The notes: generated by a model not told the origin, from the letters alone. Shown: positions 7,279-58,857, numbered from the stretch's first letter. The stretch is DNA of 64,000 nt from an uncultured Candidatus Saccharibacteria bacterium (GCA_964390745.1 CAYMIK010000003.1:6543-70542); one strand, 5' to 3'. A program made the numbers and translations.

Positions 7279-8229
7279 ATGCCTAAAAAACAAACATACA
7301 AAAATATTCGACAGTTGCTCATGATGGCTGCCATTGTTGCCATCGGTTTTTTTGGACTCCTTGCAAAACCACAAATGATCTTTGCTCAGGAAAGTACCTT
7401 TCCTGAAACTCCGCAACTTGTAACGTGCTCAGGCGCAGCTTGTAAGTGGTGTGATGTCTTTGCGCTTTTGCAACGTGCTTTCAATACCGCGGAAGTAATC
7501 ATCTTCCCGATTATTGTTATTTACATCATCTATGGCGCCGTTCTGTATATCATTGGTTCAACCAGCGGCAGTGAAGAGAGCATAGAAAAAGCTCGCTCAA
7601 CGGTAACGGATGCCATCATTGGTCTTGTCTTGCTCATGCTCACATTTATCATTGTGAATGCAGCCATAATTGGAATTACCGGAAGCAAGATTGAAAACTT
7701 TGTTAACCTCGACTGCTCTGTTATCGATACTTCTATTAGCAATGAAGGGGGAGGATCGATAACGCCACCTCCTGTAATAACTAAGCCGGCAACTCCTGAT
7801 CAAACGGCTCTTGGAAACATTACCGAAGAAGCTGCGCGACAGATTATGAAAGATAACGGCATTGCTATTAACCACGACCCCTGTCCGAAAACCACAGGAC
7901 GCGTTTCGGGTTGTACCAATCTTGCTGGTATGCGCGATGCAACTATTGCGGGAATTACGAATACAAATGAAGCGTGCAAGGCGTTTAATGGTGGAGCATC
8001 TTGCAATCTGATGATTAATGGCGGCACGGAATATGCGCACGCGGAGGGTACATACTCTCATATGAAGGGCTACAAGGTGGACTTTGCTGCAAACAGTGCT
8101 CTTACGAAATACATACATACGTTTAAGTACAAGGGCGTGCGAAGCAAAGATGGCGCGCGCCAGTATGTAGACCCAGCCGGGAATGTGTATGCCGACGAAG
8201 GTAATCACTGGGATGTAACGTACTATTAA
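7279..8229 (+). CDS. Membrane protein with an N-terminal signal peptide plus two TM helices (VirB2/TrbC-pilin-like topology) and a C-terminal M15/VanY-like (LAS) zinc peptidase domain. Likely a peptidoglycan hydrolase.
   Basis: N-terminal hydrophobic helices are seen directly. C-terminal SHMKGYKVD fits S-x-H-x6-D, and EGNHW fits E-x-x-H, the metal-binding motifs of M15 D,D-carboxypeptidase/endolysin-type enzymes. Confidence 0.55.
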   Translation: MPKKQTYKNIRQLLMMAAIVAIGFFGLLAKPQMIFAQESTFPETPQLVTCSGAACKWCDVFALLQRAFNTAEVIIFPIIVIYIIYGAVLYIIGSTSGSEESIEKARSTVTDAIIGLVLLMLTFIIVNAAIIGITGSKIENFVNLDCSVIDTSISNEGGGSITPPPVITKPATPDQTALGNITEEAARQIMKDNGIAINHDPCPKTTGRVSGCTNLAGMRDATIAGITNTNEACKAFNGGASCNLMINGGTEYAHAEGTYSHMKGYKVDFAANSALTKYIHTFKYKGVRSKDGARQYVDPAGNVYADEGNHWDVTYY

Positions 8230-33513: not shown

Positions 33514-33549
33514 GCATGCTGGTTGTTTGATCGCCAGAAGTATTTGACA

Positions 33550-33577
33550 CTAGGCCACCTTTGTGGCCTAGTTTTTA
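33550..33577 (+). terminator. Intrinsic terminator CTAGGCCAC-cttt-GTGGCCTAG followed by TTTTT.
   Basis: Perfect 9-bp hairpin plus a T5 run 37 nt after the rsmA stop. Confidence 0.75.
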
Positions 33578-33601
33578 ATTGCGAATCTGGTGGAAGCGAG
33601 A

Positions 33602-33630
33602 TTGAATTTCTTCGATCTTTGTGGTAAAAT
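33602..33630 (+). promoter_or_regulatory. Sigma70-like promoter TTGAAT-N17-TAAAAT at the head of the T4SS-like cluster.
   Basis: The hexamers and 17-nt spacer are seen directly. Confidence 0.5.
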
Positions 33631-33682
33631 TTCTTTGCAAAGTTCAAAAAGTTCAAACAAAAAGCACTTCTTCGAGGCTATG

Positions 33683-34711
33683 AAGATGCAGGAAACAAAA
33701 ACCAAGAGCATTGGAGAGAATCCAAATTTGAAACCGTACGTCGTTGTTGGCGTGGGTGTTCTTGCCATTGCGGTAAGCGTTTTTCAGCTTCTTTCCGGTG
33801 CACCAGGAAATCTTCTTCGTGCACGAGGTGACGCAAATGCGCTCAAGGAGGCCGAGAACCCAGGAAGTACCCAAAAGAATGCCGAGACCGCAATCGTGGA
33901 CAATATTGATAGTGACTCCGATGGGCTTACTGATACAGAAGAAGAGCGAATCTATCACACCGATCCATTTAAGCCCGATAGTGATGGGGATAGTTTCAAA
34001 GATGGTGACGAAGTAAAGACCGGTCATGATCCGCTGGTGAATGAGTCGGGTAAAAAAAGTAATAGCTCAACTACGGCTAATAACTCACAGAGCCAGAAGT
34101 ACAATCGTTTTATTGCGGACACGCCAGACGATCTCTCTTCGCTTGATCCAACAAAGTATTTAAGCCAAAGCGATATAAATCAGTTGCAGAGCGGCAATCT
34201 TAATAGCAGCAGTGTTGAGAAGCTCTCTAGTTTGGTACTGGCGAACACGGCTATTCAGAGCACCGGGCTTCCTGATGTTCCAGACTCAAGCATTATTATT
34301 ACCAACGAGTCCGGCAAGAATGCCGTGCAGCAGTACCTCATCGCTATTGGTTCTACGGGGCTTTTGAATGCACCATTCTCAAATCAGCAGGAAATGACTA
34401 CCTATGTCATGTCTGCGCTCAATGGGGACAGTGCGAAAGTCCAAAAGCTTGTAAATTTTGCAAAAGACACTGAAGCCAAAATGAAAAAGATTCCTGTTCC
34501 ACAGGAAATGGTGGAAATACACAAAACAGCTATTGGAACCCTCGAGCTCTTTCAGCAGTCTGCACCTGTGTTGATGAATGCCTCGTCGGTTGACCCCCAA
34601 ACGGGCCTTGTTGCAACCAACCAGCTTCGCGTTCTAGCCAATGCCACCGAAGATCTCGCCAAGCAGATTGGCGCGGTAGTCCAAAAATATGGATTTAACT
34701 TTTCACTGTAA
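33683..34711 (+). CDS. Secreted protein with thrombospondin-type-3-like calcium-binding repeats (first gene of the T4SS-like cluster).
   Basis: GAGG RBS. Signal/TM YVVVGVGVLAIAVSVFQLL. DSDSDGLTDTEE...DPFKPDSDGDSFKDGDE repeats. ORF track start 33590. Confidence 0.6.
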   Translation, partial: KMQETKTKSIGENPNLKPYVVVGVGVLAIAVSVFQLLSGAPGNLLRARGDANALKEAENPGSTQKNAETAIVDNIDSDSDGLTDTEEERIYHTDPFKPDSDGDSFKDGDEVKTGHDPLVNESGKKSNSSTTANNSQSQKYNRFIADTPDDLSSLDPTKYLSQSDINQLQSGNLNSSSVEKLSSLVLANTAIQSTGLPDVPDSSIIITNESGKNAVQQYLIAIGSTGLLNAPFSNQQEMTTYVMSALNGDSAKVQKLVNFAKDTEAKMKKIPVPQEMVEIHKTAIGTLELFQQSAPVLMNASSVDPQTGLVATNQLRVLANATEDLAKQIGAVVQKYGFNFSL

Positions 34712-35523
34712 TGAAAAAAGTCTTACGAAAAAACATTAGCATCTTCTTCATAGTCCTCTCGTTGCTCTCCGCATCGTGGGGGATACTGAGCGCACCGCAG
34801 CCTGCAGAGGCTCAGTGGGCCGTTGAAGATATTTTAAAGCTGCCAACCGATATCCTTGAACAAAACATTTTTCCAACTATCACTGACATCGTAAAGGGTT
34901 TCACGATTAGCTTTGCCTACCAAGACCTGTTGAAGTGGATTTCTGGTGAAGGTGGCGGCAAGCCAGCATTTATTACGAACTTTGACCAGTGGCTATATGA
35001 CAAGGCAGACATTGCCGCGAGCCAATTTTTGGATCAAACGCTTGGTGATGCCTACAACGTTCTTTGTACTGGAATCAACGTAAATCTTGCGTTGTACTGG
35101 AAGCCACAATTCGAAGAGACAAAATTCGATGTTCCGAAATGCACACTCTCGGAGATACAACAGAGATTCGAAAACCCCGGGACGCAATGGGTAGACTTCC
35201 AGGCAACGCTGACCGGTACCAATAGCGACGCGGGATATCTTTTTGCCACGCTTGATTTAGCGAACCAGAAGCAAGCCGAAGAGACGTTTAAAAATTTCAC
35301 CGAAGCAATAGCCGGACAGGGATATGTGAGTGAAGATGAAGATGGCAACATCAAGACTCCAGGTTCGAGCATTGCTGATCTTGTAAATGCAGGAACACAG
35401 TCGCTGTACGATGTGGGAACGAATAGTACTGGTTGGTTCAACTTTGTAGGACCCCTTATCGAAGCAGCAATCCAAGGCGCCCTGAAGAAAGGCTTCAATC
35501 AGTTTAACCAGTTGAACCTGTAA
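34711..35523 (+). CDS. Secreted hypothetical protein (signal peptide), possible T4SS periplasmic component.
   Basis: Signal peptide MKKVLRKNISIFFIVLSLLSASWGILSAPQPAEA. Start overlaps the upstream stop. Confidence 0.55.
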   Translation: MKKVLRKNISIFFIVLSLLSASWGILSAPQPAEAQWAVEDILKLPTDILEQNIFPTITDIVKGFTISFAYQDLLKWISGEGGGKPAFITNFDQWLYDKADIAASQFLDQTLGDAYNVLCTGINVNLALYWKPQFEETKFDVPKCTLSEIQQRFENPGTQWVDFQATLTGTNSDAGYLFATLDLANQKQAEETFKNFTEAIAGQGYVSEDEDGNIKTPGSSIADLVNAGTQSLYDVGTNSTGWFNFVGPLIEAAIQGALKKGFNQFNQLNL

Positions 35524-35527
35524 GTTT

Positions 35528-36502
35528 ATGGTCGATGGCATAAAGCCGCGATTGAATACGGATAAGCCAGGGGCAGTCGCACCTTCGCAACAAAAAAGTT
35601 CAAATTCGAATACTCCACAGCAAGGAGCAGGCGATATTGATGAGCTGAAAGCTGCTCGTGCTGCTTCGGCACGTCCGGTTAAAAAACCTTCGCTTCTAAA
35701 GAGAGCGGCCAATGCTGCGCTTGGGAGAAAACCGAAAGATCCGGAAGCGCAGAAAAAGAAGCAAGCGAGCGCCGCCAAGATTGCTGTTGCGAATGCAACG
35801 AAGACTCCCCATGATCCAGACCAAAGCGCATCCCAGATTTCCTCTCTCCAAGATCCCGGAAAGGATGCGAGTGTTGAGGGAAAGCAATCTCTATCTACTC
35901 CGCGTCCAAAGAATGAACCACTGCCCGCGAGAATCGGGGGGAATCAAGATGGCCTACAGAATGGCAGAATTGGGCAATCAGAGCAAATGCCCACCAATTT
36001 GCCTTCTCGAGGAGCCCCGGGCGGAGCAGTGCAAGGAAATCGGGCTATGTCGCAACCAGCGGTTGCGGGTGGCCAGATGGCCGCTGGAACTTCTGGTCAA
36101 GGAACCTCGTCGCAAGGATCACCAAATCTGAGCGATACGAAAAAAGTTGAGTTGGCTAACAATCTTTCGATTGCACGAAATGATGATGCCAAGAAAAAAT
36201 CTGAAGGTGGCGATGTCGTCTCTGAAGGAGCCGATCAAGTCACTGGTGGGGGAACCATGCGTGCCGTGGGAAAACAGGTTGGCGGTACGGTAGGCGCTGA
36301 AATTCAAAAGGCATACGATGGGCCCGTTCGTTCGCTTGTGACCACTACGGCTCTTGGTTGCTGTGTCTCTACATGCGGTTCGGGTTGCGTGGCTATTTTT
36401 CTCCTCATGGTGCTTGCAGCAATTTTGTACGGATCAATCGACTCTTTTCCTGGCGGGCAGTATATCCTACAGGCCGCCCTCTGGTTCCATAATTTATTCT
36501 AG
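35528..36502 (+). CDS. Low-complexity, largely disordered (Gly/Gln/Ala/Lys-rich) protein with a C-terminal Cys-rich hydrophobic segment.
   Basis: ORF composition. C-terminal ALGCCVSTCGSGCVAIFLLMVLAAILYG. Confidence 0.45.
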   Translation: MVDGIKPRLNTDKPGAVAPSQQKSSNSNTPQQGAGDIDELKAARAASARPVKKPSLLKRAANAALGRKPKDPEAQKKKQASAAKIAVANATKTPHDPDQSASQISSLQDPGKDASVEGKQSLSTPRPKNEPLPARIGGNQDGLQNGRIGQSEQMPTNLPSRGAPGGAVQGNRAMSQPAVAGGQMAAGTSGQGTSSQGSPNLSDTKKVELANNLSIARNDDAKKKSEGGDVVSEGADQVTGGGTMRAVGKQVGGTVGAEIQKAYDGPVRSLVTTTALGCCVSTCGSGCVAIFLLMVLAAILYGSIDSFPGGQYILQAALWFHNLF

Positions 36503-36503
36503 A

Positions 36504-38705
36504 ATGAAAAGCAAAAAACACTTCTTTTTAAAACATAAGTTCAAGATCCTCGCATTACTCGGGGTTGTTGTGTTTGGTGTTGCGGCTGTTGTTGCAAGCC
36601 CGCACATAGTGCATGCATCAGGAGTTCTTGATGACTTCAAACTTATTATATTCAACTTCTTTACCCTTCTTGCTCAGGGTGAAGCCGCTTTGATGGACAT
36701 GTTGTCCAAGGGATTTATTACTTTTACAACCTACCAAGGCTACTTCAGTGAAGACTTTGTTCGAACGGGTTGGGGAGTTATCCGTGACTTTGTAAACCTA
36801 TCATTTATTCTTGTGCTCATGATCATTGCACTTATGTCGATCTTGAGTATAGAAGAAAGTGCTGTTCGAAAGCTTTTACCCCGATTTATTTTTGCGGTAC
36901 TACTCGTAAACTTTAGCTTCTTTGTCACCAAGGTCATTATTAACGCAGCGGACGGCATAACTATTGGATTTGCTCCTGCTATCAACTCGTTAGGCGATGT
37001 ACTTTCTCAGTATATGAAAGCCTGGACAGCGTATCAGATAAAAAGCTCAGAGAATGGTTCACCCGACACCGCCGTGCTCATTTCTGCACTGGTGATGGTG
37101 GTGCTTCTCGGGTTTGTGGTTGTCGCCATGTTCAGCATTACCGTTGCAATGCTGGCCAGAATCGTGGCTCTCTGTATCTTACTCATTCTTTCTCCTGTTG
37201 CTTTTTTGGCACTTATCCTTCCTTCAACGAGCGGGCTAGCTTCCAAGTGGATGCACAGCGTTTTTTCTTACGCATTTTGGGGGCCCGCGGCAACGTTCTT
37301 TGTGTGGTTATCGGTGATAACCTTCACCTCAGATGAGAGCCAACTCACCAAGGCCCTTGTGGCAACACAAGGGAGCTCCATTCCTGAGGTTGGCACTTCG
37401 AGCGGTCAGCTCCTTAAATTTATTGTGGTTGCAATCTTCCTCTATGTTGCCATTATCGCCGGAAAGCTTTTGGGTAACACGGGAGCAGACTTAGGAATGC
37501 AGGCCGTGAAGGCTGCTGGTGGCCTTGCTGCCAAAACGGCAAAGGGTATTGGTTATGGTCTTACCACCGCAACGGGTACTGCCGGTTTAGGGAAAGAAAT
37601 AGGTAAGCGTTGGGAAGAATTCCGTGGCCGCACAACGAAGGCACGAGCTGATGAACTCTCAAGCGCCATGCGTGAACCGACCATCCGAGCCAAGCTTAAA
37701 GGTGCCAAGGCATTTTTACCAAGCAAAGAACGCAATGAAAAGATTAAAAAGAAGGCGCGGCTTGCTCGTGAACGAGAGAAGCAGAAAGACTATGCTGAGC
37801 TCACTGGTCCTGAGCAGGAAGCAGCAATGACACGACAATCTGGCGACATGGGAAGCCTTGACTCGATGGAAAGTGCAGCTGCGATGCTTCGCCAACACGC
37901 CAAGCAAGGCACGCTTTCACGTTTGAAAGATAGTAAGGGCAATCAACTCATTCGACCGGGCGAAAACATGGCTGCGGATATTCAGAAACTTGGTTTTGCT
38001 GGTGCAGATGCGGATGAGATTGCTGCACAGCTTTCAAACATTAGCCGTACGACGGATACGGGCGACCTGCGTTATGTTGGTGGTGCGAGACTTGATATCG
38101 GTGGAGGACAGGGAAATACCGACTTTGCACGAAACGATGCCGTCCAGTCTGGTGAGGCTATTTCGCAGGAAGTTGAAAAGAGAACTCGAAAGGGTCCAGG
38201 CGAGGCAAAGAAACTCAAAGAAGATGTACTTCACCCAGATCAAGAGGGTATTCACGTTATTGCTGGTATCGAACCAATGACGGGATTAGACGGAAAGCCG
38301 ATGTCGTTACGCTCTTCTATGAACGGAAAAGCACTGAACGAAGTTCGACGTCATGGTACGCTTTCCGATCAGGATAGCGCTGTTTCTCAGATCAACAAAG
38401 CCATTGAAGCAGCAAAGGCTGCCAACCCTGGTATGAGCCCGAAGGATCAAAAGTTTGATGTGGAAATTACAGTACGAAATGACGATGGCTCAGTTGAAAA
38501 GCAAAAGATTAGTTCTACGGTTGAGCGAGCTTCCGAATACGTGAAAAAAGCTAATAGCATCAATACCGACTCAGATGCACCCTCGCAGTCTTCATCCGGA
38601 AACCAGCCACCACAGAATAACAATCAGTCGGCCCAGAATGCTCAACCCAACACTGGATTTGGCGCAAACGGAAATCCTTGGTCGTCTAATAATGAGACTC
38701 GCTAA
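36504..38705 (+). CDS. VirB6/TrbL-like polytopic T4SS inner-membrane protein with a long hydrophilic C-terminal extension.
   Basis: At least 6 TM helices with TrbL-like arrangement and a Gln/Asn-rich tail. ATG at 36504 follows the stop of the upstream gene (ORF track start 36354 rejected). Confidence 0.6.
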   Translation: MKSKKHFFLKHKFKILALLGVVVFGVAAVVASPHIVHASGVLDDFKLIIFNFFTLLAQGEAALMDMLSKGFITFTTYQGYFSEDFVRTGWGVIRDFVNLSFILVLMIIALMSILSIEESAVRKLLPRFIFAVLLVNFSFFVTKVIINAADGITIGFAPAINSLGDVLSQYMKAWTAYQIKSSENGSPDTAVLISALVMVVLLGFVVVAMFSITVAMLARIVALCILLILSPVAFLALILPSTSGLASKWMHSVFSYAFWGPAATFFVWLSVITFTSDESQLTKALVATQGSSIPEVGTSSGQLLKFIVVAIFLYVAIIAGKLLGNTGADLGMQAVKAAGGLAAKTAKGIGYGLTTATGTAGLGKEIGKRWEEFRGRTTKARADELSSAMREPTIRAKLKGAKAFLPSKERNEKIKKKARLAREREKQKDYAELTGPEQEAAMTRQSGDMGSLDSMESAAAMLRQHAKQGTLSRLKDSKGNQLIRPGENMAADIQKLGFAGADADEIAAQLSNISRTTDTGDLRYVGGARLDIGGGQGNTDFARNDAVQSGEAISQEVEKRTRKGPGEAKKLKEDVLHPDQEGIHVIAGIEPMTGLDGKPMSLRSSMNGKALNEVRRHGTLSDQDSAVSQINKAIEAAKAANPGMSPKDQKFDVEITVRNDDGSVEKQKISSTVERASEYVKKANSINTDSDAPSQSSSGNQPPQNNNQSAQNAQPNTGFGANGNPWSSNNETR

Positions 38706-38708
38706 ACT

Positions 38709-39869
38709 ATGATCGATGTAGCAAAGCTTCAACCCCAAGACCTTCAAGACGAATCGCGCTTTTCTGAAATTCAGAAAGCGTTGGTTGAGGCTGTTGAAGA
38801 AGGTCGTGCTCGTGATGCACTCGATTTTCGCATTGCCGTGCAGCGATTCTTTGTCATGTTTAAAGATCTTGAAGTCCAGAAGCCAGAACTTTTTAGAAAT
38901 TATCGAAAACTTATTTTGTACATCGAGCTTGAGCTTTTTGAGATCCTTACTGATGATCTCCAAGTGCTTTTGCTTGAAAAGTATTTTACATCGTTTGCAC
39001 AGTTGAAGCTTGATATCAAGCAAAAGGTAGAGACGGCACTGCTTCTTGAAGACCCGCTCCTTGTTGATGACAAGAAGGAAACGCTCATTGCCGCTCTCCT
39101 CAGAAATCAAACGCTGATCGGAAGAGAGAAAATAGAACTTTCAGGAAGACTTGTGAGCCCAACGATTGCCAACTGGGTGGCGAAATATCGTTTGCGATTT
39201 GGCAATAAACCCCAGGACGAACTGGTGCTCATGGATTTTACTTCACGCGATGAGGCGAGATCCTTGAGTGAGGAAGATCGAGAAAAACTCCATACACTTC
39301 TTCAGATAGTTGAGAAGCTGAAATTCGAAGAAGAGCCAGAAGAGGAGACGGAACCCGAGACGCCAACAGAGAAGAAAGAGCGTCCAAGCCTTTCTCCATT
39401 GTATGTTCCTCTCAAGAAGCCAAAGGTTTCTCTTAAGGAAGTGCAAAAAGTAACTTCGCCTATGGGTGGAATTCGTCCGCAGGTTTCACGAGCTCCCCAG
39501 ATGCAGGCACAACAAGCACACAATGTTCAGGCGCCAACGGGAATGGTTCAATTTCGCTCACTTGCTGATTTGAACAAACTCGATGTATCCATGATTGATC
39601 GAATGGAAGTTCCTTTTTCACAATTCGTACCGAAGATAGCGCAAGAGATTCAAAAAGTATACACTCGATCACCAGAATCCAGACGCCACATAGTGGATCT
39701 TTGGCAGCAAAGCCCGCTCTACAAACTCTACCTTGCGATGGGGGATGAATCGCTACAAATGAAGTTACCCATAGCTCAGATTGCTGAACGTCGTGCACGA
39801 AGCGGTCAGCCAACACTTACCAAAGAAATGTTTCATCTTGTAACTGAACTTAACGACACGATCCAATAA
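38709..39869 (+). CDS. Hypothetical acidic protein within the T4SS-like cluster.
   Basis: ORF, translationally coupled to its neighbours. No recognised motif. Confidence 0.5.
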   Translation: MIDVAKLQPQDLQDESRFSEIQKALVEAVEEGRARDALDFRIAVQRFFVMFKDLEVQKPELFRNYRKLILYIELELFEILTDDLQVLLLEKYFTSFAQLKLDIKQKVETALLLEDPLLVDDKKETLIAALLRNQTLIGREKIELSGRLVSPTIANWVAKYRLRFGNKPQDELVLMDFTSRDEARSLSEEDREKLHTLLQIVEKLKFEEEPEEETEPETPTEKKERPSLSPLYVPLKKPKVSLKEVQKVTSPMGGIRPQVSRAPQMQAQQAHNVQAPTGMVQFRSLADLNKLDVSMIDRMEVPFSQFVPKIAQEIQKVYTRSPESRRHIVDLWQQSPLYKLYLAMGDESLQMKLPIAQIAERRARSGQPTLTKEMFHLVTELNDTIQ

Positions 39870-40552
39870 TGCAGTACTCTGTTCCACAATTCGTTGATGT
39901 TGAAGACAAGGTCATTGGACCATTGTCTATCAAACAGTTCCTTTGGATTCTCGGGGGAGCGGGTATCAGTGTCGTTCTTTGGTTAATACTTCCCGTAGTG
40001 CTTGCTGTTCTGCTCGATATCCCGGTGTTGTTGCTCGCTGGAGCCTTTGCCTTTTTCAAAGTGAATGGTGTCACGTTTCCCATGTACGTTGCAAACCTTT
40101 TTGGGTTTGTCATTAAACCTAAAACGCGCGTCTGGAAGCGCGAGGTGGAACTTGATAAAACTATCGTGAAGGCAGTTGATAAGAACGAAAAGCCAAAGCT
40201 TGAAAAGATTAAGCTCAGAGACGTCAACATTAAGCAGCTTGCATATATTTTAGATCACGAACTTGCTGCTCAAGCCCAAACACACACCGTTACAAATCCT
40301 ATCGAAATGACACAAAAACCTCAAGCACAGGTTATAATGAATCAGAACGTTGAAGTGCAGAACCAAAACCTTTTGACCCAGCAGGCCTATCAAGCGCCAC
40401 AAGAACAGCCGGCTTTGGCACAAGCACCCGCACCAGAGCAGACACCCGACCTTCTTCAAAACAGTGAACCTGCCTTAGATCTGCCAGAAGTTGAGCAGCC
40501 CAAAAATTCGCCGATTATAACATCGATTAAACCATTTAGAATGCCCAAATAA
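39869..40552 (+). CDS. Small two-TM membrane protein, VirB3/PrgI-like in position and topology, with a Gln/Pro-rich tail.
   Basis: Two adjacent TM helices near the N-terminus. Located immediately upstream of the VirB4-like genes. Confidence 0.4.
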   Translation: MQYSVPQFVDVEDKVIGPLSIKQFLWILGGAGISVVLWLILPVVLAVLLDIPVLLLAGAFAFFKVNGVTFPMYVANLFGFVIKPKTRVWKREVELDKTIVKAVDKNEKPKLEKIKLRDVNIKQLAYILDHELAAQAQTHTVTNPIEMTQKPQAQVIMNQNVEVQNQNLLTQQAYQAPQEQPALAQAPAPEQTPDLLQNSEPALDLPEVEQPKNSPIITSIKPFRMPK

Positions 40553-40553
40553 C

Positions 40554-41303
40554 ATGGCAAAGAAACAAAAAACTTCACCCATTCGTACCAACGAGCTTCA
40601 CGATCCGATGCTTGCCGGTGGAAAGATTGATCGAAGTACCCAAAAGTATCTTGATATCGCCGAAATTAAAGAAGACACCATTGTTTTAAAAAATGGCGCG
40701 ATTCGAGCAGTACTTCTGATCTCCAACGTTAACTTTGCGCTTCTTTCGGATGAAGAACAGGAAGCAATTATTTTGGGCTTCCAAAACTTTTTGAACTCAC
40801 TCGATTTTCCTATTCAGATTGTGGTGGAATCTCGCATCCTGGAAATTCAGCCATACCTTGATATGTTGCAAACATTTGAGAATAGCCAAGTGAACGAACT
40901 GCTTCGCGAACAAACTCGTGCCTACCGAGAGTTCGTAGGGGATTTGGTTTCTGACGCAAACATCATGGAGAAACGATTCTACATTGTTGTGCCCTTCTCG
41001 CAAGGCGAAAACAAGGAAGAAGGATTCATGTCAAAGATTAAAAAAACATTGAACCCAAGCAGTGTCGTGAAGCAGAAAAAAGAAAAGTTTGAGGTATATC
41101 GAAACCAGTTGCTTCAGCGTGCATCATTGGTTGCCAACGCTATTGGCGCTGTTGGTATGAGCTGTGTACTTTTGCAAACACGAAACTTGATTGAACTCTT
41201 CTACGCCGCATACAATCCAAAAGAGGGGACGCAGCCTTCGCTTGGAGATGTCACCAAATTACAATTAACAGGAGCATCTGAAGATGACGCCCTCGCAGAA
41301 TAA
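40554..41303 (+). CDS. Protein resembling the N-terminal domain of VirB4/TraE-type ATPases (possibly a split VirB4 N-domain).
   Basis: ...GAIRAVLLISNVNFALLSDEEQEAIILGFQNFLNSLDFPIQIVV... resembles the VirB4 N-terminal region. It overlaps the next ORF by 20 nt in a different frame. Confidence 0.4.
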   Translation: MAKKQKTSPIRTNELHDPMLAGGKIDRSTQKYLDIAEIKEDTIVLKNGAIRAVLLISNVNFALLSDEEQEAIILGFQNFLNSLDFPIQIVVESRILEIQPYLDMLQTFENSQVNELLREQTRAYREFVGDLVSDANIMEKRFYIVVPFSQGENKEEGFMSKIKKTLNPSSVVKQKKEKFEVYRNQLLQRASLVANAIGAVGMSCVLLQTRNLIELFYAAYNPKEGTQPSLGDVTKLQLTGASEDDALAE

Positions 41304-43302
41304 CCAACAAACCGATCCTGCTGCAAAACAAGCTGCAGGCGTACTGCACTTCCTCAATAAAAAGGGAGCGCAGCCCGATGAGCAAACGCAAAGTATTCTT
41401 GAGGCAGAACGAATCTTCCAAGAAGGGGTAGCTTCTGTTATTGATATCATTGCTCCATCGGCCTTGAGTGTTAACCCAAACTTTATTCAGGTTGGTGAGC
41501 AGTTTGCTGCAACCTTGTTCGTCTTTGTGTACCCACGCTACCTCCAGAGCGGCTGGTTCACGCCCGTCATTAACATGAGTATTCCGTTCAATATTTCGAT
41601 GTTTATTTACCCCGTTCAGTCAGAAGTAATTTTAAAGAACTTGAAATCAAAGTCATCGCAGGTGGAATCACAGTTGCGAATCAACCAAGAAAAGGGAATG
41701 TCACGTGATCCTGTGCTGGAAACTGCTATGCAAGACATCGAACAGCTGCGTGATTCTTTGCAACAAGGAACCGAAAAGTTTTTCAAGTTTTCCATTTACA
41801 TTACCGTGTTTGGAACTGACGAGAAGAAGATGAAGAAAACCTTGGAAAATGTTGAAGGCCTCATGAACGCCCGCCTTATTTATACCAAGCGAGCTACCCT
41901 TCAGATGGAACAAGGATTCAACTCTACGCTCCCTCTTGGAAACGACGAGCTTTCTATTACGAACAACATGAACACGTCGCCACTTTCTACCGCATTTCCA
42001 TTTGTATCGTCAGAGCTCACACAAAACGATGGAATTTTGTACGGAATCAATCGTCATAACAACAGCCTCATTTTGTTTGATCGATTTACATTAGAAAATG
42101 CCAACTCGGTGATCTTCGCTAAGTCTGGTGCTGGAAAAAGCTATACAACCAAACTTGAAATCTTGCGCTACATGATGAACGGCACTGACGTTATGGTCAT
42201 TGACCCAGAAAATGAATATCAGCACTTGGCAGAAGCTGTTGGTGGTGCATATTTGAAAATCTCTTTGACTTCACAAAGCCGAATCAATCCGTTTGATCTT
42301 CCACGAAACTCTGACGAACCCGTTTCAGACATTATTCGTTCGGCGGTCATTCAGTTGAAGGCCATGATCAGTCTTATGGTAGGGAAGTTGGATGCAACCG
42401 AAGACTCAATGTTGGATAATGCATTGATTGAAACCTACGCTAAAAAAGACATCACGGAAAACACTGCTTCGCTGGAAAATGCTGAGTTCCCAACTATGAG
42501 CGACCTTGCCGATATCTTGAGTAACGTGAGCGGCGGCGAAAGTCTTTCGCAGCGAATTTCGAAGTACACGGTTGGAACTTTTTCCGGTTTGCTCGATAAG
42601 CCGACCAACATTGATCTCACAAAGCAACTTGTGGTCTTTAATATTCGAGACCTGGAAGATGAACTTCGTCCGATTGCCATGTTCCTCACGCTCTCGTTTA
42701 TCTGGAATATCACACGATCTTCGCTCAAAAAGCGACTCCTCTTCATCGATGAGGCGTGGTGGATGATGCAGTACGAAGACTCCGCGCGATTCTTGTTTGG
42801 TCTTGCCAAGCGCGCGCGAAAATACTACCTCGGTGTAACCGTCATTTCTCAAGACGTGGCAGACTTCTTGTCTTCTGACTACGGACGCGCGGTGGTAAAC
42901 AACGCCTCGTTGTACATTTTGCTCAAACAGTCACCAGCTTCGATTGATATCATTACACAAACGTTTAGCTTGACGCGCTACGAACGACAGTTGTTGTTGC
43001 AAAGCTCGGTAGGGCAGGGGATCTTCTTCGCCGGACAACGTCACGTAGCAATTCAGGTTGCAGCAAGCCCACGAGAAGACCAGATTATTACGAGCGATCC
43101 TCGACAGTTGCTGCAAATTCGTGAAGCAAAGAGAGAGTTTGCTGAATCGATGCGGCAACAAGACGCACAAGAAGCAGTAACCGACGAACTCGAAGGACTT
43201 GAAAGCATCCCTGCATCAAATGACGAACCAGAGCAGGCAACACAGGCTGCCACTCCTTCACAAGAATCAGCACCACAAGGAACCAATGAACCACAGGCTT
43301 AA
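41284..43302 (+). CDS. VirB4/TrbE/TraE-family type IV secretion ATPase.
   Basis: Walker A FAKSGAGKSYTTK, Walker B LLFIDEAWWMM, and characteristic C-terminal motifs (GVTVISQ). Confidence 0.85.
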   Translation: MTPSQNNQQTDPAAKQAAGVLHFLNKKGAQPDEQTQSILEAERIFQEGVASVIDIIAPSALSVNPNFIQVGEQFAATLFVFVYPRYLQSGWFTPVINMSIPFNISMFIYPVQSEVILKNLKSKSSQVESQLRINQEKGMSRDPVLETAMQDIEQLRDSLQQGTEKFFKFSIYITVFGTDEKKMKKTLENVEGLMNARLIYTKRATLQMEQGFNSTLPLGNDELSITNNMNTSPLSTAFPFVSSELTQNDGILYGINRHNNSLILFDRFTLENANSVIFAKSGAGKSYTTKLEILRYMMNGTDVMVIDPENEYQHLAEAVGGAYLKISLTSQSRINPFDLPRNSDEPVSDIIRSAVIQLKAMISLMVGKLDATEDSMLDNALIETYAKKDITENTASLENAEFPTMSDLADILSNVSGGESLSQRISKYTVGTFSGLLDKPTNIDLTKQLVVFNIRDLEDELRPIAMFLTLSFIWNITRSSLKKRLLFIDEAWWMMQYEDSARFLFGLAKRARKYYLGVTVISQDVADFLSSDYGRAVVNNASLYILLKQSPASIDIITQTFSLTRYERQLLLQSSVGQGIFFAGQRHVAIQVAASPREDQIITSDPRQLLQIREAKREFAESMRQQDAQEAVTDELEGLESIPASNDEPEQATQAATPSQESAPQGTNEPQA

Positions 43303-43828
43303 AGTATCTATCTTCATAGCATTTGCTCTGACATCACTTTCGCTTATTGGCGCGGGATGTGCTCAACCAGCTTCAAAAGTTGAGGGAGTTTCTACTGGAG
43401 AAAATGTTTCTGAGGATGCGGCGCGTGCAGGAATTACGAATGATCAACTCGATGCTATTATTACTACTGCTGAGCGATTTGCTGAACGATTTGGAACGTT
43501 TACGAACCAAGATAACTTCCAAAATTTCCAGAATCTCAAGATTTATGCAACACCTTCAATGCAGTCGTGGATGGATGGATTTGTTCAGGACGAACAAAAG
43601 AAGTTTAAAGATCAGAATATCGCATTTTACGGTGTGACAACTAAGGCGCTCACTCCTAAAGTTCTTACGTCGCGGCCTGATGACATCCAAGTGCTTATTA
43701 ATACCGAGCGACAAGAGATTACTGATCAGTCCGAGACGCCAAAAATTTCGTACCAAAACATTATTATCGACATGCAGCATGTTGATAATGACTGGAAGGT
43801 AAACTTCGCACAGTTTCAAGGAAGCTAA
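43283..43828 (+). CDS. Lipoprotein (lipobox LIGAGC), possible T4SS periplasmic component.
   Basis: MNHRLKVSIFIAFALTSLSLIGAGC signal plus lipobox. Start overlaps the VirB4 stop. Confidence 0.6.
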   Translation, partial: PMNHRLKVSIFIAFALTSLSLIGAGCAQPASKVEGVSTGENVSEDAARAGITNDQLDAIITTAERFAERFGTFTNQDNFQNFQNLKIYATPSMQSWMDGFVQDEQKKFKDQNIAFYGVTTKALTPKVLTSRPDDIQVLINTERQEITDQSETPKISYQNIIIDMQHVDNDWKVNFAQFQGS

Positions 43829-43898
43829 AGCAAAACTTCGCAAATGAGTGAATGCGCAAGTTTAAGCAGTAGGGCTTAAACTTTGTGGTTTAAAAGAG

Positions 43899-46800: not shown

Positions 46801-47798
46801 TGGTGACGGGTCAGCTTTTAAACATTGAAGTTACTGCTTACAATAATAATCCAAACCAACAAAGCTATGGCGGCGTTGGATCGGTTTCGAAAAGTATTCC
46901 TATTGGATTGCGTTACGACTCGCTAGAGATTACTCAGCACAGGGCCGACACGAATGAAGATGAAGTTGTTTTCCCGTTCCCATCAGAAAACCTCACCGAT
47001 GCAAACCGTGCTGAGGCACTGGCTACGCAACTCAAAAAGAATATTGTTATTAACCGAAGCGATGACGTAAAGATTTCTATTACCAATGTTTGGTCTGATT
47101 CGATAAGCAAGAATCTTTACTTTGAATGGACGGCTGATGGCTTGCTACAAAACAAGAAGGACGCCGGAAAGGGAAGTGGGGTAGGCAGCGGATATGCAAG
47201 CTATACGTTTAATCCAAAAGAATTCTTACCAAACGATCTCACGAGCATCGATCTTCCACCAAAGAACCTGGAAGTTATTGGTCGTGCAATTGATACGGCG
47301 ACTCAAAAAGAGGTTTTAAAAATCGATCTTCACTTTGCCTACGACAATCCAGGCATAACCATTTCAGAAGAAGGATCAGAAGATACGGGACAACTTGCCT
47401 TGAGGGCCAACACGACCTCACTTGCTGATGCTGGAAGCCTGTACTACACCTGGAAGATAGGCGATAAGACTATCTCGGAAGGAAAAGGTTTGAGCTCTAT
47501 CAAACTTTCGTATTTGCAAGCAAGTGCGGCGCCTATCGTTCAATTGACAGTAGCGGATTTGAGTGGAACCACTGCGAAGCAGGTGACGGTGGAGAAACAA
47601 ATTAACATCTTTGACTCCAATCTTTCTCTTCGCCAAAAAATTGGATACGGCGCGTACGGCTTCTTGCTCAATATGCGTTACAACTCCGTGAAAGTTGCCT
47701 ATGTTTTCCTTACGTTTAACCTGGTCTTCTTTGCCTTCTACGGATTCTATCTTGCCTTCAAAAAGAAAACACCTCAACACCATGCTCGCCAAGTATAA
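43899..47798 (+). CDS. Giant surface protein paralog 1 (1299 aa): N-terminal signal anchor, PKD/Ig-like repeats, TSP3-like Ca-binding core, C-terminal TM anchor.
   Basis: Y-x-W-x-I-N-G repeats (YFAWLINGK, YDWKINGVS, YFEWTADGL, YYTWKIGDK). Core IDANNDGMDDGWEMRY...AEEYVWGTNPTDADTDDDGFPDGADLVGVGQ. Hydrophobic tail plus KKKTPQ. Confidence 0.75.
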   Translation: MKQNPFKIILKSVLVTLATIAAAVVAFLFSQGGVLRNELLHAPVTTASAADAHIEDGPPCDEAVSPGDIYQGRRMAIDVPDLGINQTATVDVAHEFNQKCLKGRFADDEIHGGFSTATITYDMNNLTNSWDTMERALALGAPEGIEGMKEGFELTEISVWDNDFTNADTTPHAEQDFPNSCNVMYTRRREGRRNDGQPRVQERASLGSFCCSNGWGTEEYLENPAEAYIGEGMDPYDEKFKNWFESSPEPDEDGNPTNGYSGFMTGHDTLRWEQTTQSVDITFEQIPATHMKKNFNYTIPYPGLLFKHLADRGQGIGYYRSSAVGFMDDKQAGNGEWDDVDTSVGCDMSVEIPLPWDAPDDRNWVVPTAYPCPSATPEHDANGKVAWAHNEPYVDENNNGEYDCPDPSDDATCEDFADIGNGYARPTDGGEADIWTFEAGSGSIDQTVAPELTFNRQRIDIAGSPKGRAIPYSPVTIFYPLTNIHIKGIFEAYSQTQCNCRPTDKAGETSISPTGQKFVGCQATFGDTFEPAQCGFCGSNQPLLSGEELPNSLAARGYQKAYCEDSLPRVTDVRWPPINFNTYSFNWELSSGSLTAVFDSILKDTGQLPQVDINVAPVSPRKGDSVHVAAIPLSFFQNPKDMYFAWLINGKTQQGLVAGAAERVPGHQAPPDFVEQVPASADLPNGATLVHKETREFYFAPKRPVKIDANNDGMDDGWEMRYFGTTSVDAAADPDKDGYTPSDFASIRPSIFASGSNNSKETYADEKRFMYITPGVWLGKKTSSCSQVFIVPDNFNPEWFPEDRLPGCTTQQSGLSNAEEYVWGTNPTDADTDDDGFPDGADLVGVGQMQWSYVNETGPLDTNRDKVGVIVLGKGSQVSEAQADTLTQIVCVDKTIYPGSNNQIDLQVNLDPTTPVPGEPLTITVNNGDPSIKDGFLTYDWKINGVSKGEEEQGKNTLEMSAEETQGLVTGQLLNIEVTAYNNNPNQQSYGGVGSVSKSIPIGLRYDSLEITQHRADTNEDEVVFPFPSENLTDANRAEALATQLKKNIVINRSDDVKISITNVWSDSISKNLYFEWTADGLLQNKKDAGKGSGVGSGYASYTFNPKEFLPNDLTSIDLPPKNLEVIGRAIDTATQKEVLKIDLHFAYDNPGITISEEGSEDTGQLALRANTTSLADAGSLYYTWKIGDKTISEGKGLSSIKLSYLQASAAPIVQLTVADLSGTTAKQVTVEKQINIFDSNLSLRQKIGYGAYGFLLNMRYNSVKVAYVFLTFNLVFFAFYGFYLAFKKKTPQHHARQV

Positions 47799-50034
47799 AA
47801 GCATTCTTACAATTTTTGCGGTACTCGTCCTGGGTCTTTTGATTTTGGCGCCAGAAATCTCCGTTGAAGCTGAATCGGTTAACAAAATTCCTGACCGAAC
47901 GGTGGGCGCAAACGGTGCAAGTGAAACACCGGACCCTCCACAAACTTCAAGTGCCGACGTCTTTCCTCCCTTCCAGGTCAGTGCGGGCTCTATTATCACG
48001 GGCATCAACTATAAGTTTAATAGCACGCAAGACCTTACGGACGCCTTCAATGGTGCTGGCAAGAAACTCGCTATCCCAATGGTGAACATTTCTATTGCTG
48101 GAAATGGTGTCGCTGAGACAGGTGCAACAACGCTCGTTGCACAGCCATTGAATTTTTCTGGTACGTTTGTTGATCAATATTTTGCGTGGTGCGTTGGAAG
48201 CAAGGAACGAAGAATTTCACAAAATGGTATTGTTGCGGGCGGAACTCGCATTCCTCTTGATGGAAATGGGAGTGATTGCTACGACGACGTTACGAGAATA
48301 CCAAGTAAGTCTGATGATACTGACTCTAATGCCGATGGAATGGGGGATAAGTGGGAGCAGCGATATTTTGGAACGTTGAGTGTTGATCCTCGAGGTGATA
48401 AAGACCAAGATGGATTTTTACTTGATTCAACGAATGCGCCGGTTGGGCCTGACGGGGTTATCAAACTTGTCCCAAATAGTATTGCGGGGACACGTAACTA
48501 TGATACCTGTGACGGAACATTTCAAAATGCTGAGGAGTGGGTATGGGGAACAAATCCAATTGATCCAGACTCCGACGATGATGGTTATAGTGACGAACAA
48601 GATGTATGTGGTAAGGGTCAGCTCAGCTTTGGATACACACCGCCAGATGGTGTGACACAAGAGAATCCTGAATTTGCTGAAGTTATTGCTGACGGCTATT
48701 CATTGTTTAAAGAAGAAAATGGCCAGCTCCAAATGGCAAAGATCGCCAACTCTGGTCAGACGCTGTTTATATCACAAGGTCAACCATTGGATGTAGCGCT
48801 GGATTACCGCATCGTCAATCTTTCAACGGAGCAAAACCAGACGACACAAGAAAACACCAATAACGGCAAGCTTCAGAAGGATATATATGTTAACGATGAA
48901 GTAGAAATGCATGCTGCGGTAGGGAACAATCAAGAGGCTGAAGGTAATCTTCATTACCAGTGGAGTTTCCAGCTTCTCGATGGTGGTGTTGACGATCCTG
49001 CGCATCCCGAAACCGTCATTGATAGTGTCGGTCCACTTCCTTCGCATTACGGAATTCCGGACAGTCGGCTGGGTGGGCGTGCGGGATATGGTCTGAATCC
49101 CTATCGTCTTAAAATTGCCGCTGCTGGAACAGATGAAACTGGCACGGGTTTTCACATTACCCCAAAGACGGGCAACAAAGTGGTTGTCACTGTTGCCGTG
49201 AATGAACCAAGTACAGGAAAGAGAACCGAGATCCAACAGAGTTTTCCTATTGCAACTTCGGTAACGTTGGATTTTGAGCCTGGGCTTCCTATTCAGCCAT
49301 TGTACCCACAAGCAGATATTTCTACAGCTCCAGAGTACACCGTTACAGCTATTGCGCCGGGTCTTGCAACAAACGACTTTTTGTATGAATGGTATGTTGA
49401 TGAAAAGCTTCAACCGAATTCGAAGATCGGTGGGGATAGTTTGAAGTTCAAGGCAACGAAGCCATCGGGGAGTTATAAGATCTCTGTTGTCATGACACGT
49501 GTTGCTGATGAGAAAGTTTTTGCCAAGGTGACTACAAAGGCCATAGTTTCGCCCTTGAAAGTTTCCATAACCAACTGTCCCGACTACACGCAAGGTGGGG
49601 TCGTGAACGCACCAGGTAAGTCAATTGCACTGAATGCGAACATTACGGCCCAAGGAACATTTCCTGGGAGCTTGGAGTACCAGTGGTTCGTTAACGGTAA
49701 GCCGCTCACCGACGTCCTTACAGCACCACAAAATTCTGTAACCTTCATACCCACGCAAGAAGGTGCGTACAACATAAGTTACTTCATCCAGGCTGTTGAG
49801 CCTACTGAGGCAAGTGCGGTACGGTTTGTACCGTTCGCTATTGAAGATAGTTGTCTCATATCGGTAACCGGCTCTACTACCGTTACCACTGCACAGGCAT
49901 TTTCGAGGCTGGTTGCAAGCGCTGTTTTTGCTATCCCCAGTGTATTTCGGGGGGTATTGACTTTTGGGGCGATAATCTTTGTAATTTTTGGTATAATATT
50001 CCTAGTACGAAACAAAAAACACAGAAAAACATAA
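47782..50034 (+). CDS. Giant surface protein paralog 2 (about 750 aa).
   Basis: Signal anchor ILTIFAVLVLGLLILAP. DSNADGMGDKWEQRY...AEEWVWGTNPIDPDSDDDGYSDEQDVCGKGQ core. C-terminal TM plus RNKKHRKT. Overlaps the upstream stop. Confidence 0.75.
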   Translation: MLAKYKSILTIFAVLVLGLLILAPEISVEAESVNKIPDRTVGANGASETPDPPQTSSADVFPPFQVSAGSIITGINYKFNSTQDLTDAFNGAGKKLAIPMVNISIAGNGVAETGATTLVAQPLNFSGTFVDQYFAWCVGSKERRISQNGIVAGGTRIPLDGNGSDCYDDVTRIPSKSDDTDSNADGMGDKWEQRYFGTLSVDPRGDKDQDGFLLDSTNAPVGPDGVIKLVPNSIAGTRNYDTCDGTFQNAEEWVWGTNPIDPDSDDDGYSDEQDVCGKGQLSFGYTPPDGVTQENPEFAEVIADGYSLFKEENGQLQMAKIANSGQTLFISQGQPLDVALDYRIVNLSTEQNQTTQENTNNGKLQKDIYVNDEVEMHAAVGNNQEAEGNLHYQWSFQLLDGGVDDPAHPETVIDSVGPLPSHYGIPDSRLGGRAGYGLNPYRLKIAAAGTDETGTGFHITPKTGNKVVVTVAVNEPSTGKRTEIQQSFPIATSVTLDFEPGLPIQPLYPQADISTAPEYTVTAIAPGLATNDFLYEWYVDEKLQPNSKIGGDSLKFKATKPSGSYKISVVMTRVADEKVFAKVTTKAIVSPLKVSITNCPDYTQGGVVNAPGKSIALNANITAQGTFPGSLEYQWFVNGKPLTDVLTAPQNSVTFIPTQEGAYNISYFIQAVEPTEASAVRFVPFAIEDSCLISVTGSTTVTTAQAFSRLVASAVFAIPSVFRGVLTFGAIIFVIFGIIFLVRNKKHRKT

Positions 50035-58227: not shown

Positions 58228-58857
58228 GTGAATATAAAAAGTAAAAAACAATTTATTGCTGCCTTTTTTACCGTAACGAGTCTTCTCGGAGTGGTTTTTT
58301 CTGCGAGTGCACCTTCTGCTTTGGCGGAAACAGCGGGTGCTTGTCCGGCTGACACCGTTTCGTTTGTTTTAGGTGGAGGAGTCTCAAAAGGCGCGGATGG
58401 AACTGCAACCGTTGCGCCTTCCGTTATATGCTGTTGTGATGCGAACAAATTTCGTGGCGTAACTATCACACACGGTTCCACGCCAAAATGTCCAACCCAA
58501 AACAATGCCTGTAAGCCACTGAATATTGGTGTTGTTTCCAGATCGGATTTTCTTGCGGCTCCAGATGACAACAACCAAGATCTTACCGTTGACACCAACT
58601 CGCCACTGTACCCGCTAAAAGACCTCGCAAAGTATGTAGGGAACTGGTACACGGCACTCTTTTACCTTGCTGTCGTTCTGGCAATCATCCAGATCTTCCG
58701 TGGCGGCATTGAGTACTCCATTGCTGCTGGTAACTCTTCCAAGACCGAAGAGGCGAAGGGCTATATTGTTGAAGCCGTCGTTGGTTTGGGCGTAGCTTTG
58801 CTTGCTGCAGGAATTCTCGTGTTGCTTCGTGGCCCAAACATTTTTTCTTTTTCATAA
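58228..58857 (+). CDS. Small secreted Cys-containing protein ending in two TM helices (VirB2/TrbC pilin-like topology).
   Basis: GTG start with GAGGGAAA RBS and a TATAAT box upstream. Signal peptide. C-terminal helices ALFYLAVVLAIIQIF and IVEAVVGLGVALLAAGILVLL. Confidence 0.5.
   Translation: MNIKSKKQFIAAFFTVTSLLGVVFSASAPSALAETAGACPADTVSFVLGGGVSKGADGTATVAPSVICCCDANKFRGVTITHGSTPKCPTQNNACKPLNIGVVSRSDFLAAPDDNNQDLTVDTNSPLYPLKDLAKYVGNWYTALFYLAVVLAIIQIFRGGIEYSIAAGNSSKTEEAKGYIVEAVVGLGVALLAAGILVLLRGPNIFSFS

Follow-up and report, generated by a model that had tools for sequence, protein, structure and literature searches.

A chromosomal type IV secretion locus of the Patescibacteria type, very probably used for something other than conjugation

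What purpose is served by a type IV secretion system (T4SS) beside which neither a relaxase nor a coupling protein is encoded? The question is raised by a gene cluster in a stretch of 64,000 nt (hereafter the window) from an uncultured Candidatus Saccharibacteria bacterium [CAYMIK010000003.1:6543-70542], in which an initial annotation, made from the sequence alone, had recognized a T4SS-like operon and proposed a non-conjugative role such as surface or host interaction. Our analysis supports that reading, domain tests, conserved housekeeping synteny and the literature being in agreement: with high confidence, the locus encodes a chromosomal, vertically inherited T4SS of the Patescibacteria type that is used for something other than conjugation. 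The system is a derivative of the conjugation machinery of monoderm bacteria of mating pair formation (MPF) class FATA. Its kind has already been published as phylum-wide and, since the locus matches the published descriptions (PMC12102498, PMC10633639), it is not new; the window provides a clean and complete example from a little-studied lineage outside the Saccharibacteria.

The T4SS of Patescibacteria have been surveyed recently (Quinonero-Coronel 2025, Microb Genom, PMC12102498); its 2,425 VirB4 proteins group together as a Patescibacteria clade within MPF-FATA, and the relaxase-less system has been found in 2,407 Patescibacteria assemblies. In that survey the VirB4 proteins of the clade are accompanied by TrsD, PrgI/VirB3, VirB6 and VirB2-like pilins (PF18895), VirB8 homologs are rare and almost confined to the class ABY1, and almost no relaxases occur in the set; most Patescibacteria genomes also contain VirD4-like homologs, i.e. 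type IV coupling proteins (T4CP), which lie far away from virB4. The chromosomal context described there comprises ksgA and, in ABY1, also recG and radA. Transposon sequencing showed that epibiotic growth requires the locus in Southlakia epibionticum (Wang 2023, Cell, PMC10633639), whose locus (SEML1_0006-0019) also includes genes for a lysozyme, an NTF2-like protein, a PEGA-domain protein and, after virB4, a protein of 1113 residues. Besides the Patescibacteria T4SS, few machines have been shown to be indispensable for epibiotic life in these ultra-small and very abundant bacteria, most of which are uncultured. The function of this T4SS was called unknown in a 2025 review (PMC12857230) and in a perspective (PMC11665869), effector delivery and nucleic-acid import being the hypotheses, and tubular structures seen at the parasite-host interface have tentatively been taken for T4SS pili (bioRxiv 10.64898/2026.06.21.733656).

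The membrane core of the system in the window is encoded by one tightly coupled string of genes (Table 1): an extended VirB6 (gene D), PrgI/VirB3 (gene F), a VirB4 split in two (the TrsD-like gene G and the VirB4 gene H) and a lipoprotein with a predicted VirB8 fold (gene I). VirB4 scores above the equivalog cut-off of the NCBIfam model conju_CD1110 (325 bits, model length 752) and matches the Pfam families TraG P-loop (96.4 bits), CagE_TrbE_VirB (30.5 bits, gathering score 21), AAA_10 and DUF87; its Walker A motif GAGKS is placed at residue 282 (42127-42141) and the Walker B motif IDEAWW at residue 488 (42745-42762). In VirB6 several hydrophobic segments reach to about residue 377 of the long open reading frame (ORF) and are followed by a hydrophilic C-terminal extension of about 350 residues. 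Gene G matches the N-terminal positions of four models, VirB4_plasma (102-267, E 2.6e-7), CD1110 (2-123), TIGR00929 (7-151) and TrsD NF041427 (E 5.8e-5), with all four scores below the model cut-offs; its ortholog in L081, a close relative (an assembly from a sequencing run) used for pairwise comparisons, is 83% identical and carries the TraC-like domain PF26593. A frameshifted VirB4 was ruled out as the origin of gene G: an ORF of this type is separate from virB4 in 66 of 67 related loci, and the split is therefore conserved and not a frameshift or sequencing artefact. Gene I gave no VirB8 match in Pfam or NCBIfam; its periplasmic or extracellular domain is predicted to be NTF2-like, the nearest structures being those of VirB8, DotI, PrgL and TraM, and its N-terminus bears a lipobox-like LIGAGC instead of a plain membrane anchor. 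The predicted fold and the gene position support a role like that of VirB8, which the protein may well play, VirB8 sequence membership aside.

All nine plus-strand ORFs listed in the initial annotation (genes A-I) are present with the properties given there. The secreted TSP3-repeat protein, the VirB6/TrbL-like protein with its long C-terminal extension, the VirB3-like protein with two membrane segments and the canonical VirB4 were confirmed, as was the ORF resembling a VirB4 N-terminal domain, for which the NCBIfam matches indicate the TrsD type. Of the profile searches which had been recommended as a check on the VirB4 and VirB6 calls, those in Pfam gave scores above the gathering scores, and in NCBIfam VirB4 passed its cut-off as well. 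The idea of a minimized Gram-positive-type set composed of VirB4, VirB6, VirB3 and a hydrolase held for the first three components only; the cluster contains no gene for a hydrolase, a predicted VirB8-fold protein being encoded instead.

Table 1 Features of the T4SS locus and the unlinked pilin gene (window coordinates; GA, Pfam gathering score)
Feature	Position (nt)	Strand	Evidence
Second VirB2-like pilin, unlinked, 26 kb upstream, fused C-terminal domain	7279..8229	+	T4SS_pilin 34.5 bits
Terminator-like hairpin, 3' of ksgA/rsmA	33549..33572	+	10-bp stem, 6 GC pairs, then TTTTTAATT T run
Promoter-like site TTGAAT-17-TAAAAT, extended -10 TG	33602..33630	+	9 of 12 matches
Gene A, membrane-anchored (N-terminal) or secreted, TSP3 (DxDxDG) calcium-binding repeat; first operon gene	33680..34711	+	TSP3_bac 33.5 bits, GA 25
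Gene B, secreted (signal peptide), predicted all-helical	34711..35523	+	sequence
Gene C, basic, low-complexity/disordered, one C-terminal hydrophobic Cys-rich segment (tail anchor)	35528..36502	+	sequence
Gene D, extended VirB6/TrbL polytopic membrane protein	36504..38705	+	TrbL PF04610 35.0 bits, GA 25.9
Gene E, cytoplasmic, mildly acidic (isoelectric point 5.6), no predicted membrane segment	38709..39869	+	sequence
Gene F, PrgI/VirB3-like, two hydrophobic segments	39869..40552	+	PrgI PF12666 43.9 bits, GA 27
Gene G, TrsD-like detached VirB4 N-terminal domain	40554..41303	+	NCBIfam matches below cut-offs
Gene H, VirB4 ATPase	41284..43302	+	conju_CD1110 359 bits, model positions 177-734 of 752
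Gene I, lipoprotein with predicted VirB8-like (NTF2-like) domain	43286..43828	+	predicted fold
Gene J, giant surface paralog 1 of 5, 1299 aa	43899..47798	+	N-terminal signal/membrane segment, C-terminal anchor, acidic, DxDxDG repeats
Gene K, giant surface paralog 2, 750 aa from ATG 47782	47782..50034	+	
Gene L, giant surface paralog 3, 864 aa from ATG 50034	50034..52628	+	weak PKD matches
Gene M, giant surface paralog 4, 770 aa	52625..54937	+	
Gene N, giant surface paralog 5, 1079 aa	54934..58173	+	
Gene O, VirB2-like T4SS pilin	58228..58857	+	T4SS_pilin PF18895 33.8 bits, GA 26.6
Gene P, membrane-anchored TolB-like (PD40) beta-propeller, 412 residues	58864..60102	+	family profile vs PDB TolB, E 2.3e-16

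The setting of these genes is that of a resident part of the chromosome. The locus is preceded by genes for UvrD, an RpfB-like G5/DPBB protein, UbiA, polyprenyl synthase and KsgA/RsmA and followed by those for RadA, methylpurine glycosylase and RecG. The comparison with 80 species-representative genome loci around VirB4 homologs revealed a common gene order, KsgA-A-(B)-VirB6-E-PrgI-TrsD-VirB4-(VirB8-like)-(giants)-(pilin)-TolB-like-RadA, which loci from several Patescibacteria lineages keep between the same housekeeping genes. TrsD is found in 72 of the 80 loci, PrgI in 66, VirB6 upstream of virB4 in 36, the VirB8-like lipoprotein in 16, and homologs of gene M, representing the giant surface proteins, downstream of virB4 in 15. 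In L081 the order is the same as in the window from UbiA through the giants, the products being identical in 88% of positions for VirB4, 83% for TrsD, 55% for KsgA and 25% for gene C. The much stronger conservation of VirB4 and TrsD than of KsgA fits a vertically inherited core machine and not a mobile element, and the gene order conserved across many Patescibacteria genomes leads to the same conclusion; the test of synteny in related genomes, suggested in the initial annotation, thus yielded a conserved order between KsgA and RadA/RecG.

VirB4 homologs number thousands in the databases, and the best 120 matches share 57-65% identity with the protein from the window. Those matches with a source name (a minority) belong nearly all to Patescibacteria, also named the candidate phyla radiation (CPR), as do most of the 80 loci: Andersen-, Doudna-, Berkel- and Falkowbacteria, the 'Parcubacteria group' and metagenome-assembled genomes loosely labelled 'Saccharibacteria'. 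By these identities the nearest named relatives are Andersenbacteria and other Patescibacteria outside the Saccharibacteria. The link to Saccharibacteria-like epibionts that had been drawn for the locus agrees with the literature (PMC12102498, PMC10633639, PMC12857230).

An ordinary conjugative element, either an integrative and conjugative element (ICE) or an integrated plasmid, with its oriT and the genes for relaxase and coupling protein beyond the window's ends or too diverged to be recognised, is a highly improbable explanation of the locus. VirB4 does pass the equivalog cut-off of CD1110, a conjugative-transposon family, but between relatives it is more conserved than KsgA, as in a core gene. 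Two recombinases, of the serine (476-2143) and the tyrosine type (11183-12112), are also encoded in the window, adjoining tRNA genes, as might be expected of such an element; they lie, however, 31 kb and 21 kb from the locus with housekeeping genes between, the tyrosine enzyme looks XerC/D-like, and no integrase is encoded within about 21 kb of the locus. A few Patescibacteria with relaxases were recorded in the 2025 survey (PMC12102498), so relaxases do occur in the phylum, but in the window, to which all negative results on relaxase, VirD4 and VirB11 refer, Pfam scans of every ORF of at least 120 aa other than shadows of larger genes detected no relaxase domain (no search was made for oriT) and no VirD4/TcpA-type coupling ATPase or VirB11, in agreement with the initial annotation. 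The only other P-loop proteins in the window are RadA, a ComM-like ATPase of the Mg-chelatase family, UvrD, RecG and a DinG-like helicase. Relaxase, coupling ATPase, an adjacent integration module and a deviant composition, by which a conjugative T4SS or ICE would be recognized, are all missing from the window: housekeeping genes directly flank the locus, with the same flanks in several lineages, and the G+C content is uniform, staying within 0.44-0.49 and not shifting where the locus begins and ends. Synteny, composition and the absence of a relaxase, T4CP or nearby integrase led us to reject the ICE reading, which synteny largely refutes.

The locus has the features of a Patescibacteria-clade T4SS, namely the affinity of its VirB4, an adjacent TrsD-like gene, PrgI/VirB3 and VirB6, PF18895 pilins and neither a relaxase nor a T4CP beside virB4. 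Like the T4SS of ABY1 (PMC12102498) it is chromosomal, with ksgA upstream and radA and recG downstream. It shares with S. epibionticum an NTF2/VirB8-like protein (SEML1_0012) and a protein of more than 1000 aa, which in that species comes directly after virB4 (SEML1_0007), but differs from it in having no lysozyme or peptidase gene after virB4 in the window, one linked pilin instead of an array of six, and a TolB-like propeller at the position for which only a PEGA-domain protein is listed in S. epibionticum. Two further differences from these published systems are the five paralogous giant surface proteins and a VirB8-like protein that is lipid-anchored and encoded directly after virB4. With the MPF-FATA systems (Prg/Pcf of pCF10, Tra of pIP501, Trs of pGO1 and CTn2 of C. 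difficile) the locus has in common the CD1110 (CTn2-type) VirB4, the PrgI-type VirB3, the TrsD-type extra N-domain protein (shared with pGO1), a predicted VirB8-fold protein likened to PrgL, TraM and TcpC, and the lack of the outer-membrane core of VirB7, VirB9 and VirB10. Unlike them, the window encodes no relaxase, PcfC/TraJ-type T4CP, PrgK/TraG-type hydrolase or PrgB-type adhesin; unlike the Gram-positive systems, it has VirB2-like pilins and a locus fixed in the chromosome between housekeeping genes. Bordetella Ptl, Brucella VirB and Helicobacter ComB have no dedicated VirD4 and do not serve conjugation, in which the present locus would resemble them, but they belong to the diderm class MPF-T and include VirB7, VirB9 and VirB10, and sequence relatedness is limited to the folds of VirB4, VirB6 and VirB8.

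Several points weigh against a non-conjugative Patescibacteria-type T4SS. A coupling protein is possible elsewhere in the genome, of which 64 kb were seen; because T4CP homologs usually lie far from virB4 (PMC12102498), the absence of VirD4 from these 64 kb is not a genome-wide absence. The placement in the Patescibacteria VirB4 clade relies on the identity of the best matches and on synteny rather than on a phylogeny. The cluster encodes no cell-wall hydrolase, genes B, C and E were assigned no fold by family and PDB searches, and in this lineage the locus is known from its genes alone.

The locus extends over roughly twice the length given in the initial annotation. The limits given there, 33590-43830, do not hold at either end: gene A most likely starts at ATG 33680 and not at GTG 33590, because the sequence GAGGCT-ATG is kept in L081, and seventeen consecutive genes on the same strand, with gaps of at most 70 nt, run on to 60102. 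The junctions among the nine genes A-I range from -20 to +4 nt; the gap of 70 nt separates gene I from the genes for the giant proteins, which themselves abut or overlap.

The additional genes encode proteins of the envelope and the cell surface. The five giants (genes J-N) are 24-34% identical to one another, have isoelectric points of 4.3-4.7, and each combines an N-terminal hydrophobic segment with a C-terminal membrane anchor; they share the DxDxDG calcium-repeat motifs with gene A. No fold was assigned to them, and gene M gave no match to PDB sequences. The pilin encoded by gene O consists of a signal peptide, a Cys-rich domain of about 100 residues and the two-helix pilin domain, and it matches a pilin profile derived from the related loci with E 1.2e-12. 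Gene P, which begins six nucleotides after gene O, is a conserved partner of the T4SS locus. By itself its product gives weak matches only (Pfam, NCBIfam); of 25 family members, 19 contain PD40 and 9 contain a PEGA domain. The TolB-like propeller is present in 54 of the 80 loci; among the 61 for which 3 kb or more of sequence downstream of virB4 is available, 50 have it downstream of virB4 on the same strand, which makes it nearly as constant beside virB4 as PrgI and TrsD. Its gene frequently has a pilin gene as partner, at times in tandem pilin-propeller repeats (L008, L009 and L010), and in Berkelbacteria-like loci it is the immediate neighbour of virB4. The comparison of the 80 genomes thus shows which accessory genes travel with the core, namely those for the predicted VirB8-fold protein, the pilin, the propeller and the giants, a list that is useful for the choice of targets in cultivable relatives.

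Pilin domains also occur in fusions. The unlinked pilin gene of the window encodes a pilin domain (residues 62-128) joined to a C-terminal domain of about 170 residues which has 1003 representative relatives in a library clustered at 50%; 27 of 40 sampled relatives carry an N-terminal T4SS pilin domain. No Pfam family was found for this C-terminal domain when the full-length protein and 39 relatives were scanned, it has no PDB sequence match, and a weak match to a tail-fibre family was the only one in PHROGs. Its invariant residues are H254, H261, D268, E307, H310 and D312, and we would guess that it may be a metal-dependent hydrolase; the pattern H-x6-D ... H may resemble that of LAS-type zinc peptidases.

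In related T4SS loci the pilin-domain genes are often long fusions. Three of them (L008:19077-21017, L011:13447-15357 and L016:5901-7412) encode a signal peptide, a Pfam GDSL lipase/acylhydrolase-type domain, the pilin hairpin and an SLT lytic transglycosylase domain, and one further pilin of the set bears an Amidase_2 domain. Both enzyme domains of the GDSL-pilin-SLT proteins would be situated outside the membrane, and the fusions may supply the missing VirB1 function. The main text of PMC12102498 and part of its supplement make no mention of the TolB-like partner, of pilin-hydrolase fusions or of the fusion encoded in the window. It is a tentative and rather doubtful proposal that the VirB2-like two-helix pilin, the obligatory TolB-like (PEGA/PD40) propeller, the pilin-tethered wall enzymes and lineage-specific giant calcium-repeat adhesins make up a conserved, undescribed module for breaching the host wall, as the extracellular half of the T4SS. 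The pilin domain may then be a recurrent membrane or pilus tether for wall-degrading enzymes (GDSL-SLT, Amidase_2 and the C-terminal domain of the unlinked pilin) and, if this is true, the module would be a wall-breaching device and not a secretion channel in the usual sense.

How such a machine might work can be outlined from its homologs. As in the Gram-positive systems, VirB4 with its detached N-domain would be anchored by VirB3/PrgI, VirB6 and the VirB8-like protein would form the membrane translocon, and the VirB4/TrsD ATPase would power the assembly of this translocon of VirB3, VirB6 and VirB8 as well as that of a pilus or tube of the VirB2 type. Judging from genetic context, the calcium-repeat giants and the gene A product would be surface or adhesion proteins binding the cell wall of the host bacterium, the propeller would be an envelope partner of the pilin, and in relatives the pilin-tethered hydrolases may open the host wall. 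The resulting conduit would carry macromolecules, either effectors from the epibiont to its host or host material in the opposite direction, and would not transfer the cell's own DNA by conjugation.

Which way the transport runs can be argued from the gene content. An outward machine, i.e. a translocator of protein effectors or a pilus/adhesion organelle that secures and remodels the site of contact with the host, is a plausible reading though short of probable: there are two pilin genes in the window, calcium-repeat surface proteins and the TolB-like propeller are, from the gene packing, co-transcribed with the core, related loci have pilin domains fused to GDSL/SGNH-type, SLT and Amidase_2 enzyme domains, and effector delivery has been proposed for the epibiont system (PMC10633639). 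Such a machine would have no coupling protein to recruit its substrates, however, and the cluster encodes no candidate effector with a recognisable toxin domain; secretion without a T4CP is known (Ptl and Brucella VirB, cited in PMC12102498) but rare. An inward machine, which like Helicobacter ComB or archaeal Ced would take up nucleic acids or nutrients for an organism unable to make nucleotides, seems rather unlikely. Its case is built on radA and recG directly downstream, which may reflect only conserved chromosome order, together with the ComM-like ATPase of the Mg-chelatase family (24694-26208) and the association of ABY1-class T4SS with comF, recG and radA (PMC12102498); VirB4 also has weak matches to CedB (33.6 bits) and CedD (27.6 bits), but against cut-offs of 700 and 600 bits these scores are very low and are explained by the ATPase fold that the proteins have in common. 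Import has been put forward as a hypothesis (PMC11665869), and feeding on host RNA in a 2026 preprint (bioRxiv 10.64898/2026.06.21.733656), but no DNA- or RNA-binding component was recognised in the locus, and the direction of transport has been demonstrated for no member of the family. We lean slightly towards an outward or contact function over import.

The product of gene A has a hydrophobic segment and an acidic isoelectric point, and its gene lies directly 3' of ksgA in 10 of these loci. The gene B family comprises members in 5 related loci and 12 database proteins, and no match was found for it in Pfam, NCBIfam, PHROG or, by profile search, PDB; gene B was considered as a candidate VirB5-like pilus-tip protein with the VirB5/TraC helical-bundle fold, and an AlphaFold model made from the 12 sequences reached a predicted local distance difference test score of 39 and was unusable. 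Gene C and its positional ortholog in L081, at the 25% identity given above, both retain the N-terminal motif MVDGI and the C-terminal hydrophobic segment; a hidden pilin was considered and rejected, there being no match to the pilin profile built from related loci. Homologs of gene E stand between virB6 and prgI in 19 loci, at times tandemly duplicated, and no match to gene E was obtained in Pfam, NCBIfam, PHROG or PDB sequences. PHROGs gave no match for gene A or gene C either.

The hairpin and the -35/-10 site that had been placed ahead of the operon as terminator and promoter are both present. The sequence of the hairpin differs in L081 and is not conserved. The promoter-like site has the extended -10 TG, yet sites of this kind occur in the region at chance level (11 observed against 11.6 expected from shuffled sequence); in L081 a -35 TTGAA and TTTGTGGTA(A/G)AAT are kept within a diverged spacer, the rest of the intergenic region having diverged too. 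Corrected start codons are ATG 36504 for VirB6 and ATG 43286 for the lipoprotein.

Other features of the window were noted at a distance from the locus. The large serine recombinase gene (476-2143) abuts tRNA-His (region 476-2190) and is followed by two tRNA-like genes (3384-3458 and 3473-3545) for which ARAGORN gave no normal anticodon, one of them being barely at the Rfam tRNA threshold (31.1 bits), and by tRNA-Arg (5480-5556) and a G+C-rich (0.55), Arg-rich ORF of 511 aa without a family (to 7112); these features may represent a small integrated element. A few kilobases upstream of the T4SS are encoded, on the plus strand, the competence-associated ComM/YifB-like ATPase mentioned above and an RpfB-like protein with G5, DUF348 and DPBB domains and a lytic-transglycosylase fold (29078-29983), either of which could be functionally tied to the T4SS. 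Between PNPase and the DinG-like exonuclease-helicase, the plus strand encodes two neighbouring DUF3352 paralogs of 534 and 630 aa (16152-19648).

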